Positions 1,283-35,509 of a stretch of DNA of 64,000 bases are shown piece by piece. A model generated the notes under the pieces. That model was not told the origin of the DNA, did no database searches, and worked only from the letters and a program-made list of their open reading frames with translations. Source of the DNA: Methanobacteriota archaeon (GTDB lineage Archaea > Thermoplasmatota > E2 > DHVEG-1). The translations under genes and the position numbers were made by a program. Position 1 is the first letter of the stretch; each line of letters begins with the position of its first letter. Location of the stretch: the NCBI GenBank assembly GCA_026394495.1, contig JAPKYE010000023.1, positions 296 through 64,295 on the forward strand, read 5' to 3'.

Positions 1283-1450
1283 CTAAAATCTCTTCGGTTT
1301 GCGTTTTTGGTAACAATCCCGGCAATAGACGGGTCTGCTTCCATCTGGTTTGAAGGGGACTTCAGTTTCTTTTCCACATTCTGCACAAGTTGCCTTATGC
1401 ATTTCTCGCGGACCATCAAAACGGCCGCCTCTGCTTTCTTCTCTATACAT
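1283..1450 (-). CDS. CxxC-x17-CxxC zinc-ribbon mini-protein, copy 1 (55 aa)
   Basis: Hand translation gives MYREESRGGRFDGPREMHKATCAECGKETEVPFKPDGSRPVYCRDCYQKRKPKRF*. AAGGAAG RBS 6 nt upstream and a TTTATATAC TATA box further up. Paralog of 20748-20921 with about 90% nucleotide identity over the core. Confidence 0.6.
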   Translation of the reverse strand: MYREESRGGRFDGPREMHKATCAECGKETEVPFKPDGSRPVYCRDCYQKRKPKRF

Positions 1451-1954
1451 ATTTTACTTCCTTTTTTGTTAAGTTCGTATAAGTATTAAGTATATAAAAT
1501 TATACGTTACCCTGTTTTTGACCCTTAAATCGCCTTTTTTTGGGGATGAATATGTATCATATATGGTTTACGTACACTGCAGAGCCGTGGATGGTGGCTG
1601 GAAAGGAGGGGGACGTAAAATATCGAAGGGTATTTTTCCGGTGAGAAGAATGGAGAGGATGGGATTGCTAAAATATTTACCCCTTTCATCATTCTACGTC
1701 CATAATTAACAATTGTTAACTTCTGTTTATAAATCTTTCGCTTCTGTTTGACGTCTTATGGAGAAAGAGCGACTTTCACCGCAGGAAAAAACCCAGAATA
1801 TTTTATATACTTGAACAAAACATGGTTAGGGGTGATCCATAAAAAAAACTGAATAACGGACCAGCGGAAACATGTTTTTGCATACAAATATACAAATCAG
1901 AAATCATAATTAACACCAAATCTAATCTTTCCTATTAAAATAAGGGGAGATAAT

Positions 1955-2767
1955 ATGGAAACAAATAAAAAAAATCTTTTACTCATACTTGGAAACAGCC
2001 TTGCAGTCATCGCAACTATAGTGGTGAATGCCTTAGCGGTAATCCTACCACTGAATGGAAAATCCACAAACGAACTATCCGATGCAATCCCAAACCTCTT
2101 TGTCCCAGCAGGCATCACATTTTCTATCTGGGGAATCATCTACATCCTCATCATCATCTTCATGCTATACCAGATACTACAACTCAGAAAAAAAGAACAA
2201 AAAAACATGGTTGCAATCGAAAAAATAGGGGGATGGTTCATCCTTGCAAGCCTAGGAAATATTCTCTGGATTTTCCTATGGCATTACCAATACGTTACCC
2301 TCTCAGTAGGAGCCATGCTTATTTTATTCAGCTCATTACTCAGAATCTACCTTAAATTAAACATAGGATTATCTACAGTCCAATTAAAAGAAAAAATAGC
2401 GGTCCATATCACCATAAGCGTATATCTTGGATGGATCACCGTCGCAACAATCGCAAATGTCACTGCAGTCCTCGTGAACCTCAACGTAGGAGAACTATTC
2501 CTTGGGCAAGCCAACTGGACAACTCTTGTCATCGCGGTCGCCATCCTCATCACCATAATCATGCTTCTCAGAAGAAAAGATGTTGCATACAGCTTGGTCA
2601 TCATCTGGGCGTTACTCGGTATCTTCATAAAGCGTATCAACCCAGATCCCATCTTTGGAACACAGACTAATATTGCCATCACCGCAGCCATCGCAATCCT
2701 CATTATCTTTATCGTAATGCTTATAAAAATTATGTCAACAATGATTAAAAAAAGAACTGCAACATAA
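1955..2767 (+). CDS. polytopic membrane protein, Trp-rich; weak resemblance to the TspO/MBR family
   Basis: 270 aa and very hydrophobic, about 8 predicted TM segments. Motifs like PNLFVPAGITFSIWGIIY resemble the TspO signature. GGAGA RBS before the ATG. Confidence 0.5.
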   Translation: METNKKNLLLILGNSLAVIATIVVNALAVILPLNGKSTNELSDAIPNLFVPAGITFSIWGIIYILIIIFMLYQILQLRKKEQKNMVAIEKIGGWFILASLGNILWIFLWHYQYVTLSVGAMLILFSSLLRIYLKLNIGLSTVQLKEKIAVHITISVYLGWITVATIANVTAVLVNLNVGELFLGQANWTTLVIAVAILITIIMLLRRKDVAYSLVIIWALLGIFIKRINPDPIFGTQTNIAITAAIAILIIFIVMLIKIMSTMIKKRTAT

Positions 2768-2794
2768 CACATACTATTACAGAAGAAACAAAAA

Positions 2795-3634
2795 ATGAAA
2801 CCATTCTCAAACATACAAGGCTGGCAGATACAACATCATGAAAAACTCTTGTTCCAAGCCAACGCAGGAACACCAACCATACGACTAAAATTCTATCATT
2901 ATCCAATGTATCGACAGACGGTACAGATCAACAAACCTCCAGGACAAAGCAAGCTAAAAAACAAAGGAGAAAACACGTATTTTGTCTTTCACCACAAAGT
3001 TGGAGCCAAAGGAATCATCTCACTAGAAAGAACTATCTCAGTGTTTCCCAAATCATTCACACCCAATAATGATGATTGGGGGAAGATATCAGATTTTTCT
3101 TCTCATCTCCAGCGAAAATATCAACAACAATTACGATACTGGCCACAACACACACAAGTAATAAAGGATATATCAAATCAAGATTGGTTCTACACCGATA
3201 ATCTTTACAACTGGGTACAATCAGCGAACACCTACATCAAAGAAAAAATAAAATACCCTGAAAAACAAGAAAAACGATTAGGCGCAGAACAAGCGTTTCT
3301 TACGGGCAGCGGTGACTGCGACGAATTCACTGATCTCTTTATTACTATTGCACGAATGCGAGGGATACCCTGTCGACGACTCACAGGATTTTTTATCCAA
3401 CAGAACCTTTCTTCAGAAGCACATGCCTGGGGAGAAATTCAAACACCTGCAAAGGTTTGGATACCAATTGACATCGCATTACATAACATTGGCAGTCATA
3501 CCATGAACTATATCATTTTAAAAATAGAGGAATTCAATCCAGCTCTCCCCGATTATCAGATCCAAACAAAACACTCAACAACCGTTCACCATCAATGGAA
3601 ACTACCAACACCACTGTTTACTCCTATTTATTAA
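2795..3634 (+). CDS. transglutaminase-like cysteine protease domain protein
   Basis: Cys-His-Asp core: GSGDCDEFTDLF...ARMRGIPCRRLTGF...HAWGEI...WIPIDI. No signal peptide. Confidence 0.65.
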   Translation: MKPFSNIQGWQIQHHEKLLFQANAGTPTIRLKFYHYPMYRQTVQINKPPGQSKLKNKGENTYFVFHHKVGAKGIISLERTISVFPKSFTPNNDDWGKISDFSSHLQRKYQQQLRYWPQHTQVIKDISNQDWFYTDNLYNWVQSANTYIKEKIKYPEKQEKRLGAEQAFLTGSGDCDEFTDLFITIARMRGIPCRRLTGFFIQQNLSSEAHAWGEIQTPAKVWIPIDIALHNIGSHTMNYIILKIEEFNPALPDYQIQTKHSTTVHHQWKLPTPLFTPIY

Positions 3635-3682
3635 TTAAAGAATTTTCGTCTCAATGAATTTTTTTATAAACAGATACGATAT

Positions 3683-5503: not shown

Positions 5504-6754
5504 TTACTCGGCTAGGTTAACGATTTTTCCCATGAAGAGAATAGTACCCGTGTCATTATGTTGAATGATAAAGAGGAATGGATGGTCTGCGTTAAACACG
5601 AGTCGGGGTTGTTCATGACCCGGACCAACAGAATTAAACAAAACAATAGCTGTGGTAGCAGCTGCCTCGGTTCCCTCTTCATTCACCTCAATAAATGCTT
5701 TGTGAAGCACAGAAGAGATGAACATATCCCTACCTCCAGTTATACCTGAGAAATCCGCATCTGAGAATGCGTGAACCATACCCATTTTCTGCAGCGGATC
5801 ATTCAGCGTATATGAGGTCTCGAGTTTGAACTTCGGCAGCATGATATCAATATTTGTCTGATAAAGAGCGTTTTTCCACTCTTTTAATTGCGCCAGGGTA
5901 AGATTCTGTTCAAGACGTTCGAGATTTTGATCCTTGGGAAGAATAATCAACATAGTGATATTATCCCCTGCGTACGTGAGTTCAAGAACCTGAACGGTTT
6001 CAGTCTCGGTATAGTTAAATAAGATGTCGGTTCCAATAAGTTTCATCATCGGAACCTGAACAGTCTGAATCGACGAAACGAAAAAGGATTCGTTCATGGT
6101 TATATTCTTATCAAAGGGGTACTTCCATGTTCCTTTGAAATAAATCGCATTAGTCAGAATAAGTCTGGTGAGTGAGTTGATTGCCCCAGGAGGAACAAGA
6201 TCTTTGATTCGCCCATTTGTATTTTGTTCAACCCAATCATTGATTATTTTCGCTGCATGAACCGGGTTAGAGAAATCAACCTCTGATGCTCGCCCTGCGA
6301 AATACGTTGTAATCTTCTCTATATAATCATCGAGTATTTTGAAGTCGTTACTCAGCCAAAGCGCATTTGCTGTGCTTAGGTTAAACGCGGTGTTATTGTT
6401 GTAGATCTGCCAGAGACGATACAATGTTGAAAGCATGGTGCTATTGCCTTGTTGATACCCCAGAAGATGACCTATCTCTTCAGCAGTTGAGGTTCTCGCG
6501 CCTTCGAAAGCCATGGCGAGTGCGATGTAAATGCTATACGGCGAGAAAAACACGCTGTCATTCGTTTTACTACAAAGCTCTTTATAGAGTCTCAGGGCAA
6601 AATCGTTCATGGGATCATTCAAACCCGAGATATCTGGTTCTTGCGGTGGACTCCAAGGAGGACGCACGATATTTGTATATACCATACCAGCGTAGACGCC
6701 TGCGGTGATGACCATACACACGGCCAACACACCAATGATTTTCAAGAGTTTCAT
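5504..6754 (-). CDS. serpin (serine protease inhibitor), N-terminally membrane-anchored
   Basis: Serpin core NAIYFKGTWKYPF, breach/shutter and hinge FIEVNEEGTEAAATTAI, C-terminal PRLVFNADHPFLFIIQH; N-terminal TM helix MKLLKIIGVLAVCMVITAGVYAGMVY. Confidence 0.85.
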   Translation of the reverse strand: MKLLKIIGVLAVCMVITAGVYAGMVYTNIVRPPWSPPQEPDISGLNDPMNDFALRLYKELCSKTNDSVFFSPYSIYIALAMAFEGARTSTAEEIGHLLGYQQGNSTMLSTLYRLWQIYNNNTAFNLSTANALWLSNDFKILDDYIEKITTYFAGRASEVDFSNPVHAAKIINDWVEQNTNGRIKDLVPPGAINSLTRLILTNAIYFKGTWKYPFDKNITMNESFFVSSIQTVQVPMMKLIGTDILFNYTETETVQVLELTYAGDNITMLIILPKDQNLERLEQNLTLAQLKEWKNALYQTNIDIMLPKFKLETSYTLNDPLQKMGMVHAFSDADFSGITGGRDMFISSVLHKAFIEVNEEGTEAAATTAIVLFNSVGPGHEQPRLVFNADHPFLFIIQHNDTGTILFMGKIVNLAE

Positions 6755-6904
6755 ATCAAATCACAATTTTATACCACCTCATGAATATATAAATGGTTGG
6801 AAAACGTTCGGGAAACACCAAACAAAAGCACACATAAATATCCAAGAAAACGATGACAAACATTTATAACGAACCTTTCCGCTACCGAGAACGAGGCAAA
6901 AAGT

Positions 6905-8008
6905 ATGGTAACTGCTGAAGATATACTCAACCAAGATGTTGTGAAGATAGATGGAAACGAATTATTCTCAAAGGTACTCTCTTTATTCAAAGAGACAGAC
7001 GCAATCGTGATCATGGATGGAGATAACTACCAGGGAATGCTTTTGAAACGATGTCTTATGAAACCGAAGATTTCCCTTGACACTAAAGTTCACACTGTAC
7101 TTACCCACTCACCAAAAATCACTCCAGCTACACCTATCGAAGAAATCGCACGACTCATGATAGAAAACAGCGTCTATCATCTTCCAGTCATCGCTGATGA
7201 AGAAGTCATTGGTATTGTCACTGCTGATGATGTTGTACAACAACTTACTGATCATAAGTTTGGTTCACAGCCAATAAAAACAATCATGTGCACTGAACCT
7301 CTTTCCATTAGCCCTGAAGACACCCTTGGAAAAGTTATAGACATGTTCCATGCACAAGACATCCCCTACCTTGCAGTTATCGACCACAACAAAATAGTCG
7401 GCGCGATCACCATGGACGACATCATAGAACATGTGATGCACCCAGAACAGAAAATGGGGGGATCACCAGGCCATGGTGATTTTGCACAAGAAAAAAAGAA
7501 AAAACTTGATTTGCCCGTGAAAAGTATTATGCAGGAGGACCCATCGCTTCTTTCACCAGAGACAACCATACGCGATGTTCATACACATATGCATAAATTT
7601 GATCTTACTGGAGCACTCATCGGAAAAGATTACACACTCAGCGGAATCGTTACACATAAAGAGCTTCTCGCACCTTTTGTCGATGTTCAAAAACAGGAGC
7701 CTTTTGCGATCCAGTTCCATCATAATACAAAAAAGGTTGAAGGTTTTGATAAAGAAGGAGCAGTGCATTTCCTCAGAGAAGAGTTCTTGAAAAACTACGA
7801 AAAATTCCTTGAATTTGGATACCTGCATGTTTCACTGGAGCAGCATAAAGAAGCAAAAGAAGGAACCCACAGGGTCGTCTGCGAAATAAAACTCTCAACA
7901 CAAAAAGGAATCTTCTATGCATCCCACGAGGGCATGGGTCCATCGCAAGCAATGAAAAACACGATGCAAGCAATAGAACATCAAATACGAAAAGCAAAAG
8001 GAGCGTAA
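6905..8008 (+). CDS. CBS-domain protein (two Bateman pairs) fused to a C-terminal HPF/RaiA (ribosome hibernation factor)-like domain
   Basis: 367 aa. CBS motifs VYHLPVIADEEVIGIVTADDVV, IPYLAVIDHNKIVGAITMDDII, GALIGKDYTLSGIVTHKELL. The C-terminal about 100 aa (FAIQFHHNTKKVEG...LHVSLEQHKE...EIKLSTQKGIFYASHEGMGPSQAMKNTMQAIEHQIRKAKG) aligns position-by-position with the E. coli HPF/YfiA pattern (LNITGHNVEIT...VYVVLKVEK...LHVNGGEIHASAEGQDMYAAIDGLIDKLARQL). Confidence 0.6.
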   Translation: MVTAEDILNQDVVKIDGNELFSKVLSLFKETDAIVIMDGDNYQGMLLKRCLMKPKISLDTKVHTVLTHSPKITPATPIEEIARLMIENSVYHLPVIADEEVIGIVTADDVVQQLTDHKFGSQPIKTIMCTEPLSISPEDTLGKVIDMFHAQDIPYLAVIDHNKIVGAITMDDIIEHVMHPEQKMGGSPGHGDFAQEKKKKLDLPVKSIMQEDPSLLSPETTIRDVHTHMHKFDLTGALIGKDYTLSGIVTHKELLAPFVDVQKQEPFAIQFHHNTKKVEGFDKEGAVHFLREEFLKNYEKFLEFGYLHVSLEQHKEAKEGTHRVVCEIKLSTQKGIFYASHEGMGPSQAMKNTMQAIEHQIRKAKGA

Positions 8009-8060
8009 CGGTAAACATATTCTTTTAATAAACAAAAAAAGAATTTTTATAATTCAGGGT

Positions 8061-8771
8061 TTACCACACTTTATCAACATCAATGTCGGCTTCATCGCCT
8101 TTCTTCTTAGCTTCAGATGCACTCATTTTTTTTTCTTTGTTGATCGTGTCAAGAATCCCGCGGAACTCAAGGGTTTTATCACCAATACGCTGCTCACAAC
8201 TTGCAACCGCAAGCTCCCCACGAGTCTTCTCAATACAACCACGAACCATATCCTGCTTCTGTTTAATCGGCAACAACGCAGCCGGATAATCAAAATTCAT
8301 GATCGCCTCATAAATAAAATCCATGTACCCAAGATACTCATGCGCCTTTGACGGTTCACCCTTTAAAATCCAATCAAGCGCACCACGACGAAGCTCACCT
8401 ACCACATCACACAACCCCATAAGATACGAACTGTACGTCGTCTGCAACACATCAGGATCAGGAAGATCTGTCCCATGGATGATATGTGTAAGACACTGAG
8501 CCTCCACATACTCCTGTGCAGCACTCTCCACAAAACCAGCGTTCGACAAATCTGGAAAATTCTTCGTAGTCTCATACAATTTCGCAAGATCAGCTGATGC
8601 ATGAGACACCAGTTTTTCTGCATCATCCCAATTACTTCGATGCAGACAATGAATAGCTTTACGGCAAGAAATAATAATATCGCGAGACGACCTCAGCGCT
8701 ACTTCACGCACCCGATCCTTCTGATCAAAAAACTTGTCGATCTTTTCAACAATACCATCAAGATTCTTCAT
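8061..8771 (-). CDS. translin-family protein (archaeal translin/TRAX-like)
   Basis: 236 aa, all-helical. YLMGLCDVVGELRRGALDWILKGEPSKAHEYLGYMDFIYEAIMNFDY matches the translin core EYLLGLADxxGExxRLAI...GDY...FI. Confidence 0.5.
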   Translation of the reverse strand: MKNLDGIVEKIDKFFDQKDRVREVALRSSRDIIISCRKAIHCLHRSNWDDAEKLVSHASADLAKLYETTKNFPDLSNAGFVESAAQEYVEAQCLTHIIHGTDLPDPDVLQTTYSSYLMGLCDVVGELRRGALDWILKGEPSKAHEYLGYMDFIYEAIMNFDYPAALLPIKQKQDMVRGCIEKTRGELAVASCEQRIGDKTLEFRGILDTINKEKKMSASEAKKKGDEADIDVDKVW

Positions 8772-11277: not shown

Positions 11278-12519
11278 ATGGATAACGATATAAAAATTCA
11301 GTTTCTCGGCGGTGCAAACGAAGTTGGAAACGCTGCAATGGTTCTTGAAATGGATGGGCTAAAACTTCTTTTTGAATACGGTTTATCACCAGGCAAACCA
11401 CCACGGTTTCCCATGCCATCACCACCAGTTGATAGAGTCATGATCACCCATGCACATCTTGACCATTCAGGGATGATTCCCTGGCTATGCGCTCAGGGAA
11501 CCCAGACGATTTTTGCAACAGAAATTACTAGTAAAGTCAGTAATCTTTTACATAAAGATACATTAAAGATCTCAAAGATGGACGGGTATGCGATACCTTT
11601 TGATAGCAACGATGTTAAAGAAGCCCAGCATAGTTTTATACGAGTTGATCCTAACAAGAAAAAAGATCTTGGTGAAAACGCTGAGGTTTGTTTTCATTCC
11701 GCAGGACATATCCCCGGATCAATCATGTATCAGGTGAAAGGATCGCGAACAGTTCTTTTCACCGGAGATATCAACGTAATTGATACAAAACTTGTTAAAG
11801 CAGCAAAACCAGCTTCTTGTGACATCCTTTGCATGGAGGCAACCTATGCAGGAAGAGAACACCCAAAACGCAGTGAACTGGAGAAACGATTTCTTGATAG
11901 AATCGACGAAGTAGTCGGACGAGGAGGCGTTGTGGTAATCCCTGCATTTGCTGTTTCCCGAAGCCAAGAAATAATCCTTGTGCTGAAGAACGCAGGGTAC
12001 AATGTCTGGTTTGATGGCATGGGGCGAAAAGTATCTAAACTCTTCTTAAAACACCCAGAATATCTGAAATCCCCTGATGATCTGAGGAAAGCGATGAATG
12101 CAATCAATCTCGTTCATTCGGATCACGGCCGCAAACTTGCGTTGAAATCAGAGGTGATCCTCACATCAAGTGGCATGATGGACGGCGGACCAGTTCTCTG
12201 GTACATGAACCATCTAAAAGATGATCCCAAAAGCGCAGTTTTTCTCACTGGTTACCAAGTCCCAGGAAGCAACAGCAAGCTTCTGATGGAAAAAGGAAAA
12301 CTTGATTTCTACGGTGTGCAGCAAAAAGTGGAATGTGAAGTAGATTATTTTGATTTCTCTGCGCACGCTGGTCATAACGAACTTATTGAGTTTGCAAAAG
12401 CATGTAAACCAAAGAAAATCGTGTTGTTCCATAGTGATAACCGAACACCACTTCTGGAACCACTTCGACAGTTCGCAGAAGTATACACCCCAACTAACGG
12501 GGAGACATTTAGCATATAA
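11278..12519 (+). CDS. beta-CASP metallo-beta-lactamase-fold ribonuclease (aCPSF2-like)
   Basis: HAHLDHSG motif 2, MBL and beta-CASP layout, 413 aa, no KH domains. Confidence 0.7.
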   Translation: MDNDIKIQFLGGANEVGNAAMVLEMDGLKLLFEYGLSPGKPPRFPMPSPPVDRVMITHAHLDHSGMIPWLCAQGTQTIFATEITSKVSNLLHKDTLKISKMDGYAIPFDSNDVKEAQHSFIRVDPNKKKDLGENAEVCFHSAGHIPGSIMYQVKGSRTVLFTGDINVIDTKLVKAAKPASCDILCMEATYAGREHPKRSELEKRFLDRIDEVVGRGGVVVIPAFAVSRSQEIILVLKNAGYNVWFDGMGRKVSKLFLKHPEYLKSPDDLRKAMNAINLVHSDHGRKLALKSEVILTSSGMMDGGPVLWYMNHLKDDPKSAVFLTGYQVPGSNSKLLMEKGKLDFYGVQQKVECEVDYFDFSAHAGHNELIEFAKACKPKKIVLFHSDNRTPLLEPLRQFAEVYTPTNGETFSI

Positions 12520-12596
12520 CAGGTTTTTTATATGATTTTTCATAATCGTTTATATGTATATTGTCGATATACAAAAGATACAACGGAGAAACGCTG

Positions 12597-13850
12597 ATGG
12601 CCGCAGTAGAAATGACCGATCGTCAGAAATATGATCTGAAACGAAAGCTTGAAGAGCTTCGTTTATGCAAAGGCAGACATACCGAACTGATTTCACTGTA
12701 TGTCCCTCCAACAAAACAGATCTTTGAGGTGAGCAACTACCTGAAAAGTGAGTTTTCACAGTCGCAGAACATCAAATCAAAAACCACGCGGAAAAATGTG
12801 ACTTCTGCGATCGAATCGATATTAAATCGACTGAAACAGTTCAAACAACCACCAGCGAACGGAGTCGTGTTTTTTGTTGGTCATAAAAGCATTGGCGCCG
12901 ATCAAACAGACATGGTTGCTTTTGTGATTGAGCCGCCGATGCCAATCACCACATTTCTCTACCGCTGCGACTCTGAATTTTATCTGGAACCAATTGAAGC
13001 GATAATGACTGAAAAAGAGATATATGGCCTCATGTTGTTAGATCGCAGGGAATGTACTATTGGGATGCTTCGCGGAAATCGCATTGAACTGTTGAAATAC
13101 ATGACGTCTCAGGTACCGGGAAAACATGGAAAAGGAGGACAATCCCAGCGCAGATTTGAGCGGGCTACTGAGATTGCTGCACATGAGTGGTTTGTGAAAA
13201 TCGGGGAGCGTGCAAGTGATATCTTTATCGCTGAAAAAAACATGAAAGGTATCTTGGTTGGTGGATCTGGTCCTACGAAACAATATTTTGTGAATGAAGC
13301 GTATTTGCATTATGAGCTTCAGAAAAAAATCGTCGACGTCTTTGACACAGGGTATACAGATGAGTATGGGCTGCGAGAACTGGTTGCTACTGCTGCGGAG
13401 AAAATGGCGGATTTGAAGATCGCCAAAGAAAAAATGGTTATGAAACGTTTTTTAAAAGAAGTGATGAAAAGTGAGGGAAGTCTTGCTATTTATGGGGAGA
13501 AGCAGGTACGTAAAGCATTAGACATGGGTGTCGTTGATACGTTGCTTCTTTCTGAGGGACTGCGGATCTATCGAGTGAAGTTGAAATGTCCCCATTGCGG
13601 GTATCAACAGGAGATGAATCTTGATGAGACGAAAATGCAAGGATTTGTTCCTCCCGTATGTTCTTCATGTAATTCCTCTGAGAAGATGATTATTGAAGAA
13701 AAATTGGATTTGGTTGATGAGTTATCTGATAAAGTAGAGACAAAAGGCGGGAGCATTCATTTGGTCTCTAGAGAAAGTGATGAAGGGGAGTCATTGTATA
13801 GTGCTTTTGGCGGGATAGCAGGTATTTTACGGTATTCATTAGATATATAA
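12597..13850 (+). CDS. prf1: peptide chain release factor aRF1
   Basis: NIKS motif (SQNIKSKT) and GGQ motif (KHGKGGQSQRRFERA). Start placed at MAAVEM because a GGAGA RBS sits 7 nt upstream; the ORF-track start at 12561 is probably too early. Contains a CPHCG...CSSC zinc-ribbon insert in domain 3. Confidence 0.85.
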   Translation: MAAVEMTDRQKYDLKRKLEELRLCKGRHTELISLYVPPTKQIFEVSNYLKSEFSQSQNIKSKTTRKNVTSAIESILNRLKQFKQPPANGVVFFVGHKSIGADQTDMVAFVIEPPMPITTFLYRCDSEFYLEPIEAIMTEKEIYGLMLLDRRECTIGMLRGNRIELLKYMTSQVPGKHGKGGQSQRRFERATEIAAHEWFVKIGERASDIFIAEKNMKGILVGGSGPTKQYFVNEAYLHYELQKKIVDVFDTGYTDEYGLRELVATAAEKMADLKIAKEKMVMKRFLKEVMKSEGSLAIYGEKQVRKALDMGVVDTLLLSEGLRIYRVKLKCPHCGYQQEMNLDETKMQGFVPPVCSSCNSSEKMIIEEKLDLVDELSDKVETKGGSIHLVSRESDEGESLYSAFGGIAGILRYSLDI

Positions 13851-19658: not shown

Positions 19659-19731
19659 GCCCCGGTAGTGTAGTGGCCTATCATGAAGCCCTGTCGAGGC
19701 TTCGACTTGGGTTCAAATCCCAGCCGGGGCG
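19659..19731 (+). tRNA. tRNA-Asp (anticodon GTC), no encoded CCA
   Basis: Cloverleaf folded by hand: acceptor GCCCCGG/CCGGGGC, anticodon stem AAGCC/GGCTT with loop CTGTCGA (GTC), T-arm TTGGG-TTCAAAT-CCCAG, discriminator G. Confidence 0.85.
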
Positions 19732-24078: not shown

Positions 24079-24694
24079 CTGCCTTCACACGCGCTCCTTT
24101 GGTAATCGTTACCTGTTTAAGTGTTTTTGTTGGAAGATACACATCAACCCGGGAACCAAGTCGTATAAGCCCTATTTTATCGCCCTTTTTTAGCATATCT
24201 CCCTTGTTGATGTAGGGGACGATCCGACGCGCTAATGTCCCTGCGATCTGAATAATTTTCACTGTACCAATCATTGTATCCAACAGAATGATGACCCGCT
24301 CATTTTTTTCAGATTCTTTCCTAAAAGCAGGGAGATGCGCACCAGGATGATGAATAATCTCTGTTATACATCCATCAAACGGCATGCGGTTCACATGAAC
24401 ATGGTACAGATTCATGAATGTTGAAATCTTTGTGCAATCTCCAACATCACCATCATCTTTTGTAATTATTTCTCGAATGATACCATCTGCTACCGCAACA
24501 ATACCGTCTCCAATGATTCGATTTGGATCCCTAAAAAAGATAAGGAAAAGACACGAAATCAACAACATCACAAATAAAAGAAAAAAAAAGACGAATCGCA
24601 ACTCACCTGCTACTACAACAGTAAAAATACAAAAGAGCCCAGTAACGAGAAATGAACCCGCAATCCACGACAAACCTCCTTTAGCTATGTGCAT
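24047..24694 (-). CDS. psd: archaetidylserine (phosphatidylserine) decarboxylase proenzyme
   Basis: Small archaeal/Bacillus-type PSD: N-terminal TM, then FMNLYHVHVNRMP...GDKIGLIRLGSRVDVYLP with the LGS-type self-cleavage site. Confidence 0.8.
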   Translation of the reverse strand: MHIAKGGLSWIAGSFLVTGLFCIFTVVVAGELRFVFFFLLFVMLLISCLFLIFFRDPNRIIGDGIVAVADGIIREIITKDDGDVGDCTKISTFMNLYHVHVNRMPFDGCITEIIHHPGAHLPAFRKESEKNERVIILLDTMIGTVKIIQIAGTLARRIVPYINKGDMLKKGDKIGLIRLGSRVDVYLPTKTLKQVTITKGARVKAGETTIAKFND

Positions 24695-25691
24695 CGTTTT
24701 TTTTCCCCAGAAGTGATGAAAAAAGGTTTTCTAGTGGTCCTTTTCGTTTCCACAAATTGGTGATACCAAACAGCTCATCAGAAAGCTCTGGAACAATTTT
24801 GAAGTTAATGAACAATAAAATAATAAGTGCGACAAGCGACAACAACTTAAAAATCACATTATGCGCAAGTTCAAACGACGTAATCTGTTCACCCACAAGA
24901 AAAATAACACCTGCATTCCGCAGCAAGTTAAGCAGATAAACAGGGATAACGGTTACAGCTATTGCTAGAAACCTTTTTTTTATTGTTGCCTTGTGAACAG
25001 CAGCATTCATTCCCACAAACAACACCATAGATTGAATAGCAGTACACGCAAATATAATCGTAACCGGTGCATTTTTAAAGACAATACTTGGCCCATCTTG
25101 GTGTGTTTGTAACCCAAAAAGCTGAAGCATCGCATTACTCTGTACCGCTACAACTTCGATCAACCAGTTTTTCAACTCAGGGATAATCCCGGTGTCTATC
25201 GTGAAATAGATTATCCCTGCAAGAAACGTACCACCTGCGATCCAGTTCAAACATGAGACAGCCTCATTACGTTTCAACGATAACCATTCCTGATACCCCA
25301 TATATGTTAAAAAATACACGCCGATACCACAAACAACTCCGTTAAACAGATCGTCACTTGGACCGTACAACTGCATCGGTTGAAGCGCCCAAAAGAATGC
25401 AAAAACCCCCCAGCCGAACATCTTAATTTTTCTGCCCATCGCCAGGTTTTTTTTTATGAAAAACCCTATGCCGAGAAGAATCAACCCAAGAAACAACGGA
25501 ATATAACTTATCTGCTGAAAAAGTAAAGACGCAGGATATGGATTAAAAACGTATCCTATAATAAGCATAATGGTTGGTATTAAAAAAAAGAAAAAAACCG
25601 TGATGTGATCGTTTTGTTTTCGTTCAGAATTCATTTTCATGGAAAACCGTTTCCGTAAACCGAGATGTGATTTAAGAGAGTTATGGAACAT
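24681..25691 (-). CDS. exosortase/archaeosortase-family membrane protein (candidate)
   Basis: 336 aa, about 8 TM helices. Candidate active-site Cys in FACTAIQSMV (compare ACSGIRS) and Arg in LLNLLRNAGVIFL. Confidence 0.4.
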   Translation of the reverse strand: MFHNSLKSHLGLRKRFSMKMNSERKQNDHITVFFFFLIPTIMLIIGYVFNPYPASLLFQQISYIPLFLGLILLGIGFFIKKNLAMGRKIKMFGWGVFAFFWALQPMQLYGPSDDLFNGVVCGIGVYFLTYMGYQEWLSLKRNEAVSCLNWIAGGTFLAGIIYFTIDTGIIPELKNWLIEVVAVQSNAMLQLFGLQTHQDGPSIVFKNAPVTIIFACTAIQSMVLFVGMNAAVHKATIKKRFLAIAVTVIPVYLLNLLRNAGVIFLVGEQITSFELAHNVIFKLLSLVALIILLFINFKIVPELSDELFGITNLWKRKGPLENLFSSLLGKKNDAHS

Positions 25692-25967
25692 TTGATTTGG
25701 TTTCTAGATGAGTCCCAGCATCTGCACAACTGATATTAAACCAAACTGCGTCATTAACCATCTATCCCACATCATACAAATCAACCCAACCAGACCCAAT
25801 AATGTAAGCGAAACCCAATAGGTGTATATGATTTGGTGCGATAGATCCGTTGATTACCCGTATGAACGCGAGTACGAAGCAGATTAAAAGCAAAATAAAA
25901 ACAGTCAAATACCATGTAAGCGGCTCGATCATTCTGCAATCCTTTGCACCCACCTAGGAAAATTTCT

Positions 25968-25996
25968 ACAAATGTTGGCCCCCCACCCCCTCCCCC
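25968..25996 (+). other. C-rich tract (C6AC5TC5) followed by ATACATTTA; one member of a recurring C-rich/ATATA motif
   Basis: ggccccccaccccctcccccatacattta. Related copies at 9771-9790, 50266-50292 and 59203-59228. Confidence 0.3.
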
Positions 25997-26034
25997 ATAC
26001 ATTTATTAACTCTATAATATATTAGTGTTCTGGT

Positions 26035-27477
26035 TTGATTGACATGACCAAAAATCACTACAAAACAATACTTGTTTTTCTTATAATTGGATTCTTACTA
26101 GAAACATCCATAACACCACCAATTTCTGCAACACAGAGAACCGATACCATATCTGCATTATCTTCACTAAACACGAAGGAACAACCCAATGAAAACACGT
26201 TATACAACCTACTCATCATCACCCCGCAAACGTTTGCCTCTGAACTCTGTCCACTTGTTTGTCATAAAAACAAACACGGGATAAAAACAAAACTTGTCAC
26301 CCTTGAACAAGTCTACACCCAAGAGTATTGGCAGGGACGAGACAAACCAGAAAAAATAAAATACTTCATAAAAGACGCAGTAGACCACCTTGGAATACAA
26401 TACGTGCTCCTCGTAGGAAGCTATCGCTATTTCCCAATCAGATACTGCTACAACGCAGACAACAACACCGGCTACCCCGAACCCAGATTTATCTCAGAGT
26501 TATACTATGCAGATCTCTACGACAAAAACGGAAATTTCTCCAGCTGGGATACTAATGGAAACGGCGTCTACGGAGAATGGTTCACCAATCATGCTGAGGA
26601 TCCAGACATTGATTTATACCCTGATGTCGCCGTTGGAAGACTCGCCTGCAGAAACAGTCAAGAAGTAAAAATCATGGTCGATAAAATCATCACCTACGAG
26701 ACACAAACCTATAACAGTAACTGGTTCAAAAAAATCGTTGTCGCCGCAGGAGACACCTACCCTGCATCTCAAAACCCAAACTGGACGGGAAATGAAGGCG
26801 AAGAAAACACGTTACATGTGCTTGAGAACATGACAGATTTTCAATCAGTGAAACTCTGGGCGTCTGATGGAACTCTAACAGGGACAAACGATGTGATTAA
26901 CGCAATTAGTAATGGCTGCGGGTTTCTGTATTTTGACGGACATGCAAACCCATACCGCTGGAGTACCCATCCACCAAATGATGCTGCCACATGGATTGAA
27001 GGATTATCAGTCATATCCATGTCTCGGCTGAAAAATAAGGATATGTACCCGGTTTGTGTCGTCGGAGGATGTCACAACCTTGAGTTTGATGTAAACTTCG
27101 CAAAACTAAAGACTGATCCCTGGTACTACTACACCTGGATCACCGAATGCTGGGGGTGGAAACTCACCCGTAAAATCAACGGCGGATCCATAGCAACCAT
27201 CGGCTGCACCGGCCTAGGGATGACAAAAGAAGACAAAAAATCATTTAGCGGCGCAGGGGACTATCTTGAACCTACGTTTTTCTATGAATACGGGGTGAAC
27301 AACACCCATATCCTTGGCGACATCTGGAAAAACACGATCACAGATTATCTCAAACAATATCCCATAGATTGGAATACATCTGCAGCAGGGGATTTTGCTA
27401 TTGATGCAAAAACCGTACAACAATGGGCGCTACTTGGAGACCCAAGTCTACTAATCGGTGGATACCCCAACGTCTGA
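26035..27477 (+). CDS. secreted clan-CD cysteine peptidase, family C25 (gingipain-like), catalytic domain only
   Basis: Signal peptide. Gingipain N-terminal region LLIITPQTFASELCPLVCHKNKHGIKTKLVTLEQVY...IKYFIKDAVDHLGIQYVLLVGS. YADLYDKNGNFSSWDTNGNG...DLYPDVAVGRL. Catalytic His in YFDGHANP and Cys in VCVVGGCHN. Ends LLGDPSL. Confidence 0.7.
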   Translation: MIDMTKNHYKTILVFLIIGFLLETSITPPISATQRTDTISALSSLNTKEQPNENTLYNLLIITPQTFASELCPLVCHKNKHGIKTKLVTLEQVYTQEYWQGRDKPEKIKYFIKDAVDHLGIQYVLLVGSYRYFPIRYCYNADNNTGYPEPRFISELYYADLYDKNGNFSSWDTNGNGVYGEWFTNHAEDPDIDLYPDVAVGRLACRNSQEVKIMVDKIITYETQTYNSNWFKKIVVAAGDTYPASQNPNWTGNEGEENTLHVLENMTDFQSVKLWASDGTLTGTNDVINAISNGCGFLYFDGHANPYRWSTHPPNDAATWIEGLSVISMSRLKNKDMYPVCVVGGCHNLEFDVNFAKLKTDPWYYYTWITECWGWKLTRKINGGSIATIGCTGLGMTKEDKKSFSGAGDYLEPTFFYEYGVNNTHILGDIWKNTITDYLKQYPIDWNTSAAGDFAIDAKTVQQWALLGDPSLLIGGYPNV

Positions 27478-29964: not shown

Positions 29965-31737
29965 ATGAAAGCAATCCTCAAACTATTCTCCGAACACGGC
30001 ACTTTCATCCAACCAGAAGCTGTCACCTACATTTCCACAAGAGAACACCCCAAAGAATTCGCATCACTTCTCCTTGAAAACCTCAAAGAATACCCACTCG
30101 TCCTCACTCTAGATCAAATCAAAGCAATAGAACAAACATCTCTAGTAAAAAACCTCCCAACACTCGAAGAACCAACCATAAAACAACCAATAAACGAACC
30201 CCAAGAAATAGCGACACAAGACGTCATACTATCTGAAAAACCCCCTGAATCACAGATAAAAACAGAAAAACCTCCACTTGATGAAAAACAAAAACAAAAA
30301 ATCATCTTATCAAAAATGTATTCTTCGCCATCTCCACGCGATGAAAACGATGAAGAAATCGAAGAAGAATACGAAGACCCAGATAAAGACGACCAGATAA
30401 CAATCAACGGCGAAGAAACAGAAAAACCACTCATCCGTCCTGTTGAACTCAAAAAAATAAAAGGATGGAAACCCCTCGCAAAAGAATACGCGCCTGAGAT
30501 AAAAATCATCAAAGACGTAACAGGAAACAGCACCTGTGAAGGCACCACCCAGGATTTCGCAAAACTCTTCAAAAACAGGTACGCTATCCTTCATAAGATA
30601 CTTCAGAATCAACGCAGAGAACTCATGAACGCACTCCCCATCAACCGCATCAAAAAAAGTGCGACAAACGACCTTCAACTCATAGGGATCGTAAAATCTG
30701 TCCGTACCACAAACAATGGTCACCGCCTTATCGAAATCGAAGATGAAACTGGTGAAGCACCCCTCATCGCATTGAAAACAAACCCAGACATCCTTCAGAT
30801 AGCTAATGAAGTAGTCCTTGATGAAATAATAGGTGTGAACGGCAAACTCAGCAAAAACGGGGATCTCATAATCATTCAAAACATCATATTCCCTGATATC
30901 AGCATCCGACACAACAAACAAAAAGCAGAAGTCCCCATCTGCGCCGCGTTCCTCTCAGATATTCACATGGGAAGCAAGATGTTTCTTGAGGATCAATGGC
31001 ATGCGTTTATCAAATGGATCAATGGAAACCTAGGCAACTCCCGGCAAAAAGATGTAGCTGGAAAAGTAAAATACCTGGTCATCCCCGGCGATATCGTAGA
31101 CGGGATTGGTATATACCCTAACCAAGAAAAAGAACTCTCCATAAAAGATATTTACCGGCAGTACGAAGCACTTGCTTTGCAGATGCAACAGATTCCGGAT
31201 CATATCTCCATTATCATACAACCAGGGAACCATGATGCGGTAAGACCCGCTGAACCACAACCAGCGTTTGCAAAAGAAATCCAGAGTCTTTTTTCAGGAA
31301 AAGAGGTGCACTTCGTCGGAAACCCCTGCTATTTTTCACTTCACAGCGTCGAAGTATTATCGTATCATGGACAAAGCCTGCTTGATTACGCAACAAACGT
31401 CCAACATCTGCGATACAACGAACCAATCGAGATCATGAAAGTCATGCTCAAGAAACGCCATCTCGCCCCTATCTACGGAGGATATACGCCGCTTGCACCA
31501 GAACATCTAGATCACATGATCATTGACAAAGTCCCCGATATCTTCGTCACCGGACATGTACACTTGGCAGCACTTGACGATTACCGAGGTGTAACACTCA
31601 TCAATGCATCATCGTGGCAGGCACAAACCACGTACCAAAAAATGCTGAACTTTGTCCCTGATTCAGCAAAACTCCCGATAGTTGATCTGAAAACAGGCAG
31701 TGCCACAACAATGGATTTCAGCCAGCAAATAACATGA
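29965..31737 (+). CDS. polB: DNA polymerase II (PolD) small subunit DP1
   Basis: Typical N-terminal domain, OB fold, and C-terminal calcineurin-like phosphoesterase motifs (VIPGDIVDGIG, QPGNHD, TGHVH). Confidence 0.85.
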   Translation: MKAILKLFSEHGTFIQPEAVTYISTREHPKEFASLLLENLKEYPLVLTLDQIKAIEQTSLVKNLPTLEEPTIKQPINEPQEIATQDVILSEKPPESQIKTEKPPLDEKQKQKIILSKMYSSPSPRDENDEEIEEEYEDPDKDDQITINGEETEKPLIRPVELKKIKGWKPLAKEYAPEIKIIKDVTGNSTCEGTTQDFAKLFKNRYAILHKILQNQRRELMNALPINRIKKSATNDLQLIGIVKSVRTTNNGHRLIEIEDETGEAPLIALKTNPDILQIANEVVLDEIIGVNGKLSKNGDLIIIQNIIFPDISIRHNKQKAEVPICAAFLSDIHMGSKMFLEDQWHAFIKWINGNLGNSRQKDVAGKVKYLVIPGDIVDGIGIYPNQEKELSIKDIYRQYEALALQMQQIPDHISIIIQPGNHDAVRPAEPQPAFAKEIQSLFSGKEVHFVGNPCYFSLHSVEVLSYHGQSLLDYATNVQHLRYNEPIEIMKVMLKKRHLAPIYGGYTPLAPEHLDHMIIDKVPDIFVTGHVHLAALDDYRGVTLINASSWQAQTTYQKMLNFVPDSAKLPIVDLKTGSATTMDFSQQIT

Positions 31738-31763: not shown

Positions 31764-32231
31764 TTATTTTTTTATTTTATTTAAGAATTTGTTTAGACGT
31801 GAATTTCGGGCTTTGAATCGTTTTTCCTCTTTAATTTCTTCTTGTTTGACAAGCGGATCTCCCTTGTAGCCTTCTTTAGATTTCTCCTTTAATCGATCCA
31901 ATTCACATTCATCAAGCCAAACACCACCACAATTTAAACACACATCAACCTCAACATCATCAGCTTTTTCGATATCCATCGTCATTGCACATCGAGGACA
32001 GATCATTGGGCTTTTACTTTTAGTCCCAATATGCTTGGTAAGATAATTTGCTAATTTTCTATCCTTTAACAGCTTGTCCAGTTCACCTTTATCCAACCAT
32101 ATACCGTTACATTTTGGACAAACATCAATGATCAGATTTGGTCCAAATATCTCGATTTCCGTTTTATCCATTTCAACCCAGCAGCGATGACATTCATATT
32201 TTCTTTCAGAATCAACTTTCTTTGAAGGCAT
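31764..32231 (-). CDS. tandem zinc-ribbon protein (two TF_Zn_Ribbon-like CxxC...CxxC modules)
   Basis: CHRCW...CPKCNGIWLDKGELDKLL and CPRCA...CLNCGGVWLDECELDRL, followed by a lysine-rich tail. Confidence 0.5.
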   Translation of the reverse strand: MPSKKVDSERKYECHRCWVEMDKTEIEIFGPNLIIDVCPKCNGIWLDKGELDKLLKDRKLANYLTKHIGTKSKSPMICPRCAMTMDIEKADDVEVDVCLNCGGVWLDECELDRLKEKSKEGYKGDPLVKQEEIKEEKRFKARNSRLNKFLNKIKK

Positions 32232-32469
32232 AGGGATTGGTATCGATTACATGATTTTATTATTTACCATCATAAAGCATGAATTACCAGGTTTTTAATG
32301 AAGTTATTTTTTTTGTTATCATCCTTTGGTATAATTATCTAAAAACCATGAAATACTTAATTTTCCTTCAAAAATAATAAAAAACGCCCTTTTTTAGAAT
32401 TATGAGGGATTTTCTTGGATTGGGGCTTTATGTTCTTTAGGGCAGTTACTATTATTGAGGTAAAAAAAC

Positions 32470-33390
32470 ATGTCGGTCGTAACCTATCAAGACGCGGTTG
32501 AATACCAACGCCGTAATGTAGAAGAAAATCTTCTTCACCTCAAAGAGGTTCTTCGAAATGAATTTATTCATGGTGGACATTTAATAGCATTAGGAACTGC
32601 AGGTATCGCTTTATCATCAATGTTTTTGTTTAATACAGTGATTAGATGGGAATTTCTTCTAATAATTTATTTTGGAACTCTTTGTATCTATGGCTACGAT
32701 TATTACAAAGGATTTGAAATTGATTCCTTAAATAATTTTGACAGGACGAATCATCTTAAAAAAATTTATAAATATCGACCACTGATGTTGATTTTTTATG
32801 GACTAGGATTTTTTTGTTTGTTAATATATTTTGGAAATTCTGCAAGTATCTTTTTTGGAGGACTATTATTATTAAGTGGACTAATGTACACTTTTAAATT
32901 TAAAAAAATGACAAAGAAAATAATAGGTTTGAAAAGTTTTTATACAGCATTTTCATTTTCTCTTTCAGTAATTTTTACAGCGTTATTTTGTTCATACCCA
33001 ATCAACTTTTTATTATCAATTTTTTTCGTATTTGTTTTTCTCCAAATTTTACTTATCACAAGTTTTTGCGATATTAAAGATATGGACACTGATAAAAAAC
33101 ACGAACTACAAACATTGCCGATTTATTTTGGAAAAGAAAAATTTTTATTTTTCCTCCACATCATAAATCTTGGGTCTCTTATTCTGATATTGATTGCTTT
33201 TACTTTGAAGATAATTCCTTTGTTTTCAATATTTTTATTTTTTTCATATCTCTACTGTTTTTATTTTATTCAAAAAGCAAAGAATGTAAAAACAAATTTA
33301 CATTACCTAACAAATACAATAGTTGATGCTTCATATTTTTTCTGGCCTGTTTTCTTATTTTTAGGGAAAATGGCATTGGCAATTATATAA
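32470..33390 (+). CDS. divergent UbiA-superfamily prenyltransferase-like membrane protein, paralog 1
   Basis: About 9 TM. Second Asp-rich motif CDIKDMDTD is present. First motif is degenerate: YDYYKGFEIDS...FDRTNHLKKIYKYRPL, compare NDxxDxxxD...RTxxRPL. Confidence 0.5.
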   Translation: MSVVTYQDAVEYQRRNVEENLLHLKEVLRNEFIHGGHLIALGTAGIALSSMFLFNTVIRWEFLLIIYFGTLCIYGYDYYKGFEIDSLNNFDRTNHLKKIYKYRPLMLIFYGLGFFCLLIYFGNSASIFFGGLLLLSGLMYTFKFKKMTKKIIGLKSFYTAFSFSLSVIFTALFCSYPINFLLSIFFVFVFLQILLITSFCDIKDMDTDKKHELQTLPIYFGKEKFLFFLHIINLGSLILILIAFTLKIIPLFSIFLFFSYLYCFYFIQKAKNVKTNLHYLTNTIVDASYFFWPVFLFLGKMALAII

Positions 33391-33493
33391 AAATATTATC
33401 GAGTTTAAATTAAAAAATAGGTGCTTATCGATATAATAAGAATTAATATCCATAATGAAATTATTTAAATATAATTAAGTAATTCATTAGAAT

Positions 33494-34354
33494 GTGAAAA
33501 AATCGGAATTTATTTGGAATGAAATTGTCTTTGGCAGTCATTGGCTCTCGATGGGCGCTGCAGCTATTGCTCTTTCTGCTATGGTTCTGCTTGAAATGAA
33601 TATTCGATGGGAGTTTTTATTTATAGCATATTTTGGAACACAATTCATTTATAATTACAATCATCATAAAGAAATAGACATTGATTCCTCAACTAACACA
33701 TCAAGAACGATGCATCTCGGTATATATCATAAATATAGTAAAATTCTTATAGTAATTTATGGAGCTATTTTTTTTATTTTATTGATATTATTTGGAAACT
33801 CAGAAACTTTTCTTTTTGGAGGATTATTACTACTTATAGGTTTACTATTTTCATATACTATTAAAGATTTTTTTGGAAAAATAGCCGGAGTGAAATTACT
33901 ATATACTTCGTTTGCATGGGGGTTGCTTATACCTTTTACTGCTATTTATTGTTCACATCCTCTGGATAAATCCATCATTATTTTCTTTGTATTTACATCA
34001 TTTCGGGCGATAATAACAACAACTTTTTTTGATATAAAGGATATTGTAATCGATACAAAAAGAAATATCGTGACATTACCAGCCATCCTTGGTAAAGATC
34101 GATGTCTAGATTTCTTACATTTATTCAATTTTATTTCTTTATTACCAATTATTTTTGGAGTGATTATAGGTATAATTCCAAAATATTCAATCTTTCTAAT
34201 ATCACTGTTTTTTTACACCTATTATTATACTCAAAAAACAAAGTATGACACTGTGGATCTTCCCATGATTTCGTATATCATTGTAGATGGTGAATTTGTT
34301 TTTTGGCCGTTTCTTTTAATGTTAGGTATTGTTTTTATGACACGGTATCTGTAA
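33494..34354 (+). CDS. divergent UbiA-superfamily prenyltransferase-like membrane protein, paralog 2
   Basis: Paralog of the upstream gene. Second motif FFDIKDIVIDTK is DxxDxxxD; in the first motif the Asp residues are replaced (YNYNHHKEIDID...SRTMHL). Confidence 0.5.
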   Translation: MKKSEFIWNEIVFGSHWLSMGAAAIALSAMVLLEMNIRWEFLFIAYFGTQFIYNYNHHKEIDIDSSTNTSRTMHLGIYHKYSKILIVIYGAIFFILLILFGNSETFLFGGLLLLIGLLFSYTIKDFFGKIAGVKLLYTSFAWGLLIPFTAIYCSHPLDKSIIIFFVFTSFRAIITTTFFDIKDIVIDTKRNIVTLPAILGKDRCLDFLHLFNFISLLPIIFGVIIGIIPKYSIFLISLFFYTYYYTQKTKYDTVDLPMISYIIVDGEFVFWPFLLMLGIVFMTRYL

Positions 34355-34371
34355 CTAAAAAATCGTTTATT

Positions 34372-35505
34372 TTATACCGTTATTGTTAACGTTAAATAAT
34401 TTTTTACGACGATGTTATACGTTTTAAATTCGATTTGTTTACCTAACGAGCTAGACACAAAACCGGACACAATACCTCTAAAAATTATATATTTCGACGT
34501 CTCAGAAAAAATGGTCCAAGGATAATAAACAGATGCAATACTTGGTTTAGTGGGATCTAAAACTCGTACTTCTCCAAAACCAAGCGCAGAAAAAAAATCC
34601 GGTATAAATTTTTGATAATCTTTATATCCATAAGTCTCTTGTAATAATTTACCATATTCAAAACAAGCATTGAATAGAACTTGTTCACCACCATCTAGTT
34701 TTGCTATTTCCTGTTCCAATAAATAGAGAATATGAGAATCGCAAAAGAAAAACCTATTCTTTTTGTAAGAGAGAATACCTTGTTTAAATTCGAAAAAACC
34801 TGCATTTAATAAATCCTTTAAAGAATTTTTAGAATATATTGTTTTTCGTATTTCATTCATTGTCTTATATAAACTATCAGACTTTTGATCAGATAAATCT
34901 AATTCATGAAAAATATGGGGAGTTTTTTTAAGTAAAAATACTTCAGGAGCACAGATAATATAACATTGTTGATTTCCCCTTCCCTGACATTCTATCTGTA
35001 TTCCTTCAACTGTTTTATCCTGCATTGCATACGCCCAGATTCCAGCAATACCACCATCAGTCATTATGTAACCAAGGCCATTGTGTCTACATATGATGTA
35101 ATCCTTGAAATAGATATTAAACATTTTTTCATCTATATTTATTTCATACTTAGCTTCTTTAGCATATGTACCTTCGACAAACCGTACAAGTAAATATGTA
35201 AAATCAGAAAATTCTTTTTTTGTGCACCTTTGAATTGTTGGAAAGTTTGAAAGAGATGAGTATATATAACCGTTCTTTTTTCCAGCAGAATACAATACTT
35301 GTTTTCCTCGTTCTCCAAAGCATTCAATGATTCTTTTTTCAATTATTTCAAAAAGTTGTTCAGGTAAAAAAATATCTCTCAGATAAGTTGTTTTTTTATG
35401 TTCAGTAAAGGCAGTAATGATAAATCCAGGTTTATCAATAATTTCTCTTCTTGGTATGATAATATTTTGAATGTACCAAGTTACCACCCTATCTTTTACC
35501 GCCAT
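34372..35505 (-). CDS. XylR_N/V4R-like sensory domain protein (putative small-hydrophobic-ligand binding)
   Basis: 377 aa. GYIMTDGGIAGIWAYAM...IQIECQGRGNQQCYIICAPE resembles the V4R motif E..C...G...C.F; a second Gly-rich V4R-like repeat near the C-terminus. Confidence 0.3.
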   Translation of the reverse strand: MAVKDRVVTWYIQNIIIPRREIIDKPGFIITAFTEHKKTTYLRDIFLPEQLFEIIEKRIIECFGERGKQVLYSAGKKNGYIYSSLSNFPTIQRCTKKEFSDFTYLLVRFVEGTYAKEAKYEINIDEKMFNIYFKDYIICRHNGLGYIMTDGGIAGIWAYAMQDKTVEGIQIECQGRGNQQCYIICAPEVFLLKKTPHIFHELDLSDQKSDSLYKTMNEIRKTIYSKNSLKDLLNAGFFEFKQGILSYKKNRFFFCDSHILYLLEQEIAKLDGGEQVLFNACFEYGKLLQETYGYKDYQKFIPDFFSALGFGEVRVLDPTKPSIASVYYPWTIFSETSKYIIFRGIVSGFVSSSLGKQIEFKTYNIVVKNYLTLTITV

Positions 35506-35509
35506 ACTG

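Follow-up and report, generated by a model that had tools for sequence, protein, structure and literature searches.

An open reading frame of 367 codons plus stop (6905..8008, + strand, ATG start) raises the question of whether an archaeon can combine a CBS nucleotide-sensing module and a bacterial-type ribosome hibernation domain in one polypeptide, and whether such a protein would be new. It lies in the 64-kb window, by which we mean the whole stretch of DNA analysed here. The original prediction gave the N-terminal 260 or so residues two CBS (Bateman) pairs and the C-terminal part an HPF/RaiA-like domain. The encoded protein of 367 aa is an exact database match to GenBank MCX6665028.1, titled "MAG: CBS domain-containing protein [Euryarchaeota archaeon]", and its M1 is invariant across 38 homologues. 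Our reading, to which we give a probability of roughly 0.88, is that it is a HibA/AHA-type archaeal ribosome hibernation factor of an uncultured Thermoplasmatota archaeon, and we refer to the gene as a hibA/AHA-family gene on the basis of this ORF, the GenBank match and a full-length match to PDB 9SR9 chain H described below.

A putative TATA-box-like element (TTTATAA, 6863..6869, + strand) lies 36-42 nt 5' of the ATG, and a putative Shine-Dalgarno-like GAGG occupies 6893-6896 on the same strand, both assigned by consensus. Downstream, an A/T-rich spacer of 52 bp (8009..8060) separates it from a convergent translin-like gene and is probably the termination region for both. The hibA/AHA-family gene appears monocistronic. 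The window also carries an archaeal SRP RNA, a canonical aRF1 and the PolD subunits DP1/DP2, placing it in an archaeal host. Many Thermoplasmatota MAGs carry the gene at full length (55-81% identity), and its close relatives among GTDB representative genomes are all Thermoplasmatota/Thermoplasmata MAGs (54-73% identity).

In the N-terminal half, the predicted Bateman pairs are present, and the ORF coordinates are exact; Pfam PF00571 recovers four CBS stretches, or two Bateman pairs, over the N-terminal ~260 aa (E=2.5e-32). The AF2 model has four beta-alpha-beta-beta-alpha CBS units within residues 1-262, at a full-length pLDDT of 82.7 with low confidence only at the loop 181-195 and the linker 260-264. 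All four units lie on the + strand. CBS1 (residues 1-56, 6905..7072) and CBS2 (residues 57-120, 7073..7264) are supported by both Pfam and AF2; in CBS1 the Thr/Asp nucleotide pair is degenerate (GMLLKRC), and CBS2 carries the motif G103-IVT106-AD-D109. CBS3 (residues 121-180, 7265..7444) is likewise found by both methods, contains the best Pfam CBS stretch (124-178) and has the motif G166-AIT169-MD-D172. CBS4 (residues 203-262, 7511..7690) is assigned from the AF2 model; its G247, V249, T250 and E253 are invariant in the 38 homologues. In a Foldseek search with the full-length model, the top match was SriA (E=4e-22), and the CBS tetrad fold also matched MJ1225, Dri and AMPK-gamma; the same resemblance has been published for the CBS tetrad of AHA (PMC12934967). 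9SR9 was not returned by this search, whose library held entries released up to 2026-04-08.

The HPF-like C-terminal domain, which spans ~105 aa from residue 263 (7691..8005, + strand), is a more difficult case. Sequence comparison places it in the right family at marginal strength; PF02482 (Ribosomal_S30AE) matches residues 296-365 in the correct register, with 18.5 bits for the whole protein and 21.5 bits (E=4e-4) for the last 103 residues alone, both below the gathering score of 23.7. The HMM check that had been proposed for this region therefore bears out the alignment and falls short on score. TIGR00741 (HPF/YfiA) gives 15.6 bits against a cut-off of 40.9, and PF02482 matches at E<=0.01 in 9 of 38 clade members, all sub-threshold. 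A comparison of the C-terminal alignment with E. coli HPF and RaiA by hhalign was weak (E=0.0018, probability 15%, 44 columns covering beta3-beta4-alpha2) and served solely to confirm the register. Most of the motif originally quoted for this domain can be read in the protein ("LHVSL", "EIKLS", "HEGMG" and "AMKNTMQAIEHQI"), the exception being "GHN", which reads "HHN".

The predicted structure is clearer. HPF-family structures top all other folds by a clear margin in a structure comparison with the predicted model, so that the HPF fold proposed for this region is clearly recovered. Searching PDB sequences with a profile of 16 C-terminal domains retrieved HibA (residues 270-371, E=1.2e-6) and 9l96_a (residues 323-382, E=2.3e-4); these two archaeal CBS-HPF chains were the only matches, with no bacterial HPF among them. 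When 1.84 billion cluster representatives were searched exhaustively with a profile, 54 clusters were found at E<=1e-3. Their lengths form two main groups: fused, HibA-like proteins of ~360-400 aa, which carry the domain C-terminally, and standalone HPF-like proteins of ~100-140 aa. Some shorter or intermediate entries are also present and are probably partial. One standalone relative (P0171) passes the PF02482 gathering score with 24.7 bits, with others just under it. These fused and standalone clusters mirror in miniature what has been published about HibA and standalone "HPF/RaiA-like" proteins.

This near miss at the PF02482 threshold is also why NCBI and Pfam label the window protein and its relatives only "CBS domain-containing protein", which leaves an annotation gap for them in public databases. 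In JGI, some close relatives are already annotated as [quoted passage not shown].

The closest characterised match is an archaeal protein. In a phmmer search of PDB sequences, window residues 4-362 are colinear with residues 6-369 of 9SR9 chain H (E=4.6e-33), which is HibA of Pyrococcus abyssi, an archaeal factor for ribosome hibernation with a cryo-EM structure (PMC13324472); overall identity is 24%. The chain is deposited under the name "Dehydrogenase". The second match is another solved CBS+HPF chain, 9l96_a, named "CBS domain-containing protein" (E=1.1e-29); our literature search on PDB 9L96/9L98/9L9C/9L9V found no relevant paper. The same two chains lead when the CBS module (1-262) is searched alone (9l96_a, 2.8e-22; 9sr9_H, 3.1e-21), while the modules of Sri, Dri and MJ1225 score 1.9e-13 or weaker. 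The domain boundary is aligned as well, with P. abyssi 269/270 corresponding to window 262/263.

Three further features of HibA can be followed in the alignment. Both archaeal-specific insertions in the HPF-like domain are present: KKV (276-278) aligns ungapped with P. abyssi SAL (283-285), and AKEGTHR (317-323), which the AF2 model shows as the beta-hairpin loop 315-322, aligns ungapped with KFRGVHL (324-330). SAL 283-285 and KFRGVHL 324-330 are the segments deleted in the HibA double-deletion variant (PMC13324472). Among 41 core positions at which the HibA C-terminal domain contacts the ribosome, the window protein has the same residue at 8 and the same or a similar one at 22, and the contact positions invariant in the clade include F281, K283, G335, Q348 and H359; the window protein does not conserve R292, R299, R326, R347 and R362, which contact rRNA in P. 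abyssi HibA.

The third feature is the long loop between CBS3 and CBS4, which in HibA (residues 190-207) folds around A2834, a universally conserved nucleotide of the peptidyl transferase centre (PTC) (PMC13324472). P. abyssi 190-207 (RFKAQYGELAGEKIPPFS) aligns with window residues 181-202 (EQKMGGSPGHGDFAQEKKKKLD; 7445..7510, + strand), a PTC-loop equivalent that is conserved across the clade and 4 residues longer than in P. abyssi HibA. The aligned core of the loop reads HGDFAQEK here and YGELAGEK in P. abyssi, giving a common core of G-[DE]-[LF]-A-x-E-K. Contacts with A2834, U2817 and the A loop are listed for P. abyssi Y195, E197, L198, A199, E201 and K202 in the published contact table (PMC13324472); the counterparts of these residues here are H190, D192, F193, A194, E196 and K197, and 9/15 of the loop-region contact positions are identical or similar. 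Tyr195, which stacks on A2834, is replaced by His or Arg in the clade. Flexibility of the loop would account for the low pLDDT at 181-195.

Membership of HibA/AHA holds on every sequence and fold test that could be run. Because the whole protein and each half match HibA, and because the PTC loop and both insertions are present, the structural and functional inference of the original prediction is supported; its pairing of an adenylate-binding CBS module with an HPF/RaiA-like domain in ribosome hibernation corresponds to the experimentally characterised HibA/AHA. However, its premise that archaea are thought to lack HPF-type factors is outdated, given HibA (bioRxiv 10.1101/2025.10.11.676729; PMC13324472) and AHA (PMC12934967). 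Nor is the architecture undescribed, having been reported as Hib/HibA (bioRxiv, October 2025; Nat Commun 2026) and as AHA (bioRxiv, February 2026).

Could the resemblance have arisen independently? With only 24% identity to P. abyssi HibA and no C-terminal tail, one might suppose that a CBS tetrad and an HPF-like domain were fused convergently in Thermoplasmatota, giving a protein that is not orthologous to HibA. We consider this extremely improbable, as the alignment runs colinearly through the linker with the same domain boundaries (269/270 vs 262/263), and neither the position of the loop nor the two HPF insertions differ. Furthermore, the HibA CBS module is monophyletic in published phylogenies, which implies a single fusion. 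The protein might instead be a CBS-tetrad regulator with a mainly non-ribosomal role, either a transcription regulator like HhpR (CM-3) or a replication/recombination partner, with its C-terminal part a generic RNA- or protein-binding alpha/beta module. This is also very unlikely, because both halves match ribosome-bound HibA-type chains best rather than Sri, Dri or HhpR-like modules, HPF-family structures clearly outrank other folds, and the PTC loop core is conserved. The charges of the two domains (pI 5.1 for the CBS module and 8.7 for the HPF-like domain) agree with a ribosome-binding picture and are not diagnostic of it.

Taking the window protein as a HibA/AHA-type factor, its probable mode of action can be sketched from published work. 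[quoted passage not shown] HibA is reported in 47% of 4026 archaeal genomes (PMC13324472). AHA, described independently as HVO_2384 of Haloferax volcanii, also has a deletion phenotype (Souza et al., bioRxiv 2026, PMC12934967), with 3,160 homologues in 2,723 species and 17 phyla (PMC12934967). On the model of these two homologues, P. abyssi HibA and H. volcanii AHA, the HPF-like domain of the window protein would anchor it in the 30S decoding channel, the CBS tetrad would fill vacant tRNA sites on the 50S subunit and the long CBS3-CBS4 loop could insert into the PTC. With one domain on each subunit, a single polypeptide would thus span both, keeping an idle 70S together and blocking translation. 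The active sites would be shielded from nucleases in stationary phase or under stress, and the silenced 70S would be reactivated by tRNA and mRNA once conditions improve. For the window protein itself, we infer ribosome binding and translation inhibition by analogy.

The CBS module would also make the protein a potential sensor. Thr/acidic pairs are found in CBS2 (T106/D109), CBS3 (T169/D172) and CBS4 (T250/E253, invariant), with none in CBS1, and these pairs make adenine-nucleotide binding plausible; the T/D pair logic of adenylate binding has been described for ARC and AMPK-gamma. By analogy, AMP, ADP or ATP is probably bound at the CBS3/CBS4 interface. The CBS module of P. abyssi HibA binds AMP, ADP and ATP between CBS3 and CBS4 with Kd values of 12 uM, 65 uM and 113 uM, respectively (PMC13324472), and AHA holds two AMP at CBS3/CBS4 (PMC12934967).

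Whether such binding would control hibernation is a separate matter. Under the hypothesis of energy-charge-gated hibernation, which the original prediction put forward for the window protein and which is likewise a hypothesis for the HibA/AHA family, the AMP-bound factor would stay on the ribosome and ATP would release it, as reported for the unrelated CBS-tetrad ARC. The intact Thr/Asp-type pairs in CBS2 and CBS3, the invariant Thr/Glu in CBS4, the preference of P. abyssi HibA for AMP, the two AMP molecules of AHA and the release of ARC by ATP all speak for a true energy-charge switch. However, 5 mM AMP or ATP caused no clear change in the binding classes or ribosome binding of HibA, whose authors call regulation an open possibility (PMC13324472), and the only demonstrated case of release by ATP is the ARC complex, which has no HPF domain. 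CBS4 also has Glu where Asp is canonical, and allostery is not readable from sequence. We therefore regard such a switch in this HibA-type factor as possible, though less likely than not.

The one marked departure from HibA that we found in the sequence is at the C-terminus; the changes in loop length, the Tyr and the Arg->His positions are minor, within-family variation. Among these, the Arg of the helix motif E-R-Q-L is replaced by the invariant His, H359. The window protein ends 5 residues past the last aligned helix ("...IEHQIRKAKGA"), whereas P. abyssi HibA continues for 23 residues more. This tail (370-387) runs to the mRNA-exit side, where its end adjoins the SD:anti-SD duplex, and it contacts h23, h24, uS7, uS11, eS28 and the E-site tRNA (PMC13324472). 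By our own count from Supplementary Data 1 of that study (PMC13324472), P. abyssi residues 376-386 make 84 of the 269 C-terminal-domain contacts. The tail is a characterised feature of P. abyssi HibA, which its authors do not call defining. Cluster representatives closest to the window protein also lack it, while the more distant fused ones have tails of 16-20 residues (35 in one). The 30S footprint of the tail-less clade is therefore probably smaller than that of P. abyssi HibA.

A reduced footprint, together with three intact Thr/acidic pairs, makes it conceivable that ribosome binding in the tail-less clade is weaker and truly AMP/ATP-gated, so that the clade would form a functionally distinct HibA subtype. 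This suggestion is speculative and we think it unlikely. If it holds true, an energy-charge switch would be demonstrated in an HPF-type factor for the first time, and archaea would have a counterpart of the division that bacteria show between tailed RaiA and short HPF. The tail-less subgroup could in any case be used to test what the HibA tail contributes and whether nucleotide binding controls ribosome engagement.

The genomic neighbourhood offers little to add. The neighbour on the other strand (8061-8771, - strand) is indeed of the translin family, as originally suggested (PF01997, 34.5 bits vs a cut-off of 25.9). It carries no information on function: at 21 related loci, neither translin nor any other of the window neighbours (serpin, enolase, GNAT, cupin and 2-hydroxyacid dehydrogenase) has a counterpart within +/-4 kb. 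A downstream gene at one related locus (L001), considered as a translin homologue, has no similarity to it. Relatives at ~60% identity share a peptidase C25, OsmC, a PQQ beta-propeller and a lycopene-cyclase-like gene, but these reflect clade synteny without a link to translation, and we rejected an operon partner. Within the 64-kb window, no second CBS-tetrad or HPF gene was found. An eRF1-like ORF (12561-13850), considered as an archaeal Balon, is a canonical aRF1 (TIGR03676, 540 bits, with NIKS and GGQ motifs).

The discovery value of this locus is small, as the CBS-HPF architecture and its hibernation role have been published with structures, genetics and phylogenomic surveys. It does show that a real, recently discovered family was recoverable from raw sequence.

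Several known systems share parts of this protein. AMPK gamma and MJ1225 have the same four-CBS disk fold (Foldseek E~1e-16 to 1e-18) and Thr/Asp-type sites in CBS3/CBS4, but the window protein carries an HPF domain and is not part of a kinase heterotrimer. The CBS-tetrad fold also recurs in SriA-D of M. acetivorans (9ZNF/9ZNG/9ZNI), ARC-A/P of Methanolobus and Dri of P. calidifontis (9E6Q), which are ribosome-associated archaeal factors that bind adenylates. However, these lack the HPF domain and differ in their ribosome binding modes, and their sequences match the window CBS module at E values of 1e-9 to 1e-13, compared with 1e-21 for the HibA module. Bacterial HPF, RaiA (YfiA) and plastid pY (PF02482, TIGR00741) resemble the other half, with the window protein under both thresholds (21.5 vs 23.7 and 15.6 vs 40.9). 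They occur alone or with a C-terminal dimerisation domain, whereas the window protein has an N-terminal CBS tetrad and two extra insertions. In contrast to bacterial HPF, HibA forms no 100S dimers and instead bridges 30S and 50S inside one 70S. HibA itself (P. abyssi Q9UYR4 and T. barophilus; PDB 9SR9 series; Madru et al., PMC13324472) is like the window protein over its full length, with the long CBS3-CBS4 loop, both insertions and an archaeal host in common. It differs in that the window protein is 24% identical, has a loop longer by 4 residues and His/Arg for Tyr195, does not conserve several rRNA-contacting Arg, has no counterpart of P. abyssi 376-386 and comes from a mesophilic-type lineage of uncultured Thermoplasmatota. 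Since the CBS-HPF architecture has already been published as HibA/AHA, the window protein is not a new kind of protein but a divergent, tail-less Thermoplasmatota member of a described family.

Databases say little about the window protein (hibA; 6905-8008, plus strand), in which a CBS tetrad is joined to an HPF/RaiA-like domain within 367 aa. NCBI labels it and its relatives (P0002-P0120) 'CBS domain-containing protein' and nothing more, and their precomputed Pfam matches consist of PF00571 (CBS) alone. Some JGI entries for relatives add 'ribosome-associated translation inhibitor RaiA'. In the window protein's clade, the HPF domain misses the gathering score of PF02482 (Ribosomal_S30AE) by 2-5 bits. 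The window protein and these relatives are an annotation gap.

Upstream, a full-length serpin with a hydrophobic N-terminus (5504-6754, minus strand; PF00079, 403 bits) is transcribed divergently from hibA, and is not kept beside hibA in relatives. On the other side lies a translin-family protein (8061-8771, minus strand), which matches Pfam Translin above threshold. The NCBIfam PRK14562 models also match it, at sub-threshold scores; their name, 'haloacid dehalogenase superfamily protein', is at odds with the Translin match. Further along the window (24681-27477) is an exosortase/archaeosortase-like membrane protein (PF09721) with a peptidase C25 gene nearby. Relatives of about 60% identity also have a peptidase C25 gene, conserved as the neighbour on the upstream side of hibA; in the related locus L008, for instance, it lies at positions 1334-3643 of that locus.

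Some Thermoplasmatota have been reported to carry Balon-like eRF1 homologues. The gene at 12561-13850 (plus strand) was ruled out as a Balon-like factor; it encodes a canonical aRF1 (TIGR03676, 540 bits) with both the NIKS and GGQ motifs. The listed reading frame starts at a TTG codon, 12 codons from the first in-frame Met. Directly upstream of aRF1 is the gene for a short (413 aa) beta-CASP/metallo-beta-lactamase RNase (11278-12519, plus strand). This protein matches the aCPSF1 model partially, covering only positions 173-603 of 631 and scoring 249 bits, far below the threshold of 580.

An archaeal SRP RNA (42178-42492, plus strand; 185.6 bits) and a single tRNA (19659-19731, plus strand) confirm that the window is archaeal. 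Both PolD subunits are encoded: DP1 at 29965-31737, and the large subunit DP2 at 36832-41802 (plus strand). An intein that contains a LAGLIDADG homing-endonuclease domain (residues ~952-1389) splits the DP2 sequence. GC content is 0.28-0.32 at 32000-36000, compared with about 0.40 elsewhere. This stretch contains two UbiA-family prenyltransferases, a KaiC-like ATPase and a 377-aa ORF for which a Pfam search gave no match, and could represent an island gained by horizontal transfer or one related to the cell envelope.

Fused CBS-HPF proteins occur in two forms among the cluster representatives from the C-terminal-domain profile search (P0124-P0167). Tail-less proteins have 0-4 residues beyond the last helix, whereas tailed ones have 10-35 extra residues (15-20 in most), whose hydrophobic/basic pattern, for example '...RFLNK...', is loosely conserved. 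Of these two forms, the window protein has the tail-less one, while Pyrococcus abyssi HibA has the tail. Another CBS+HPF chain has also been solved (chain a of PDB 9L96, 9L98, 9L9C and 9L9V), for which our literature search found no citing paper. This chain, 406 aa long and acidic in composition, matches the window protein with E=1.1e-29.
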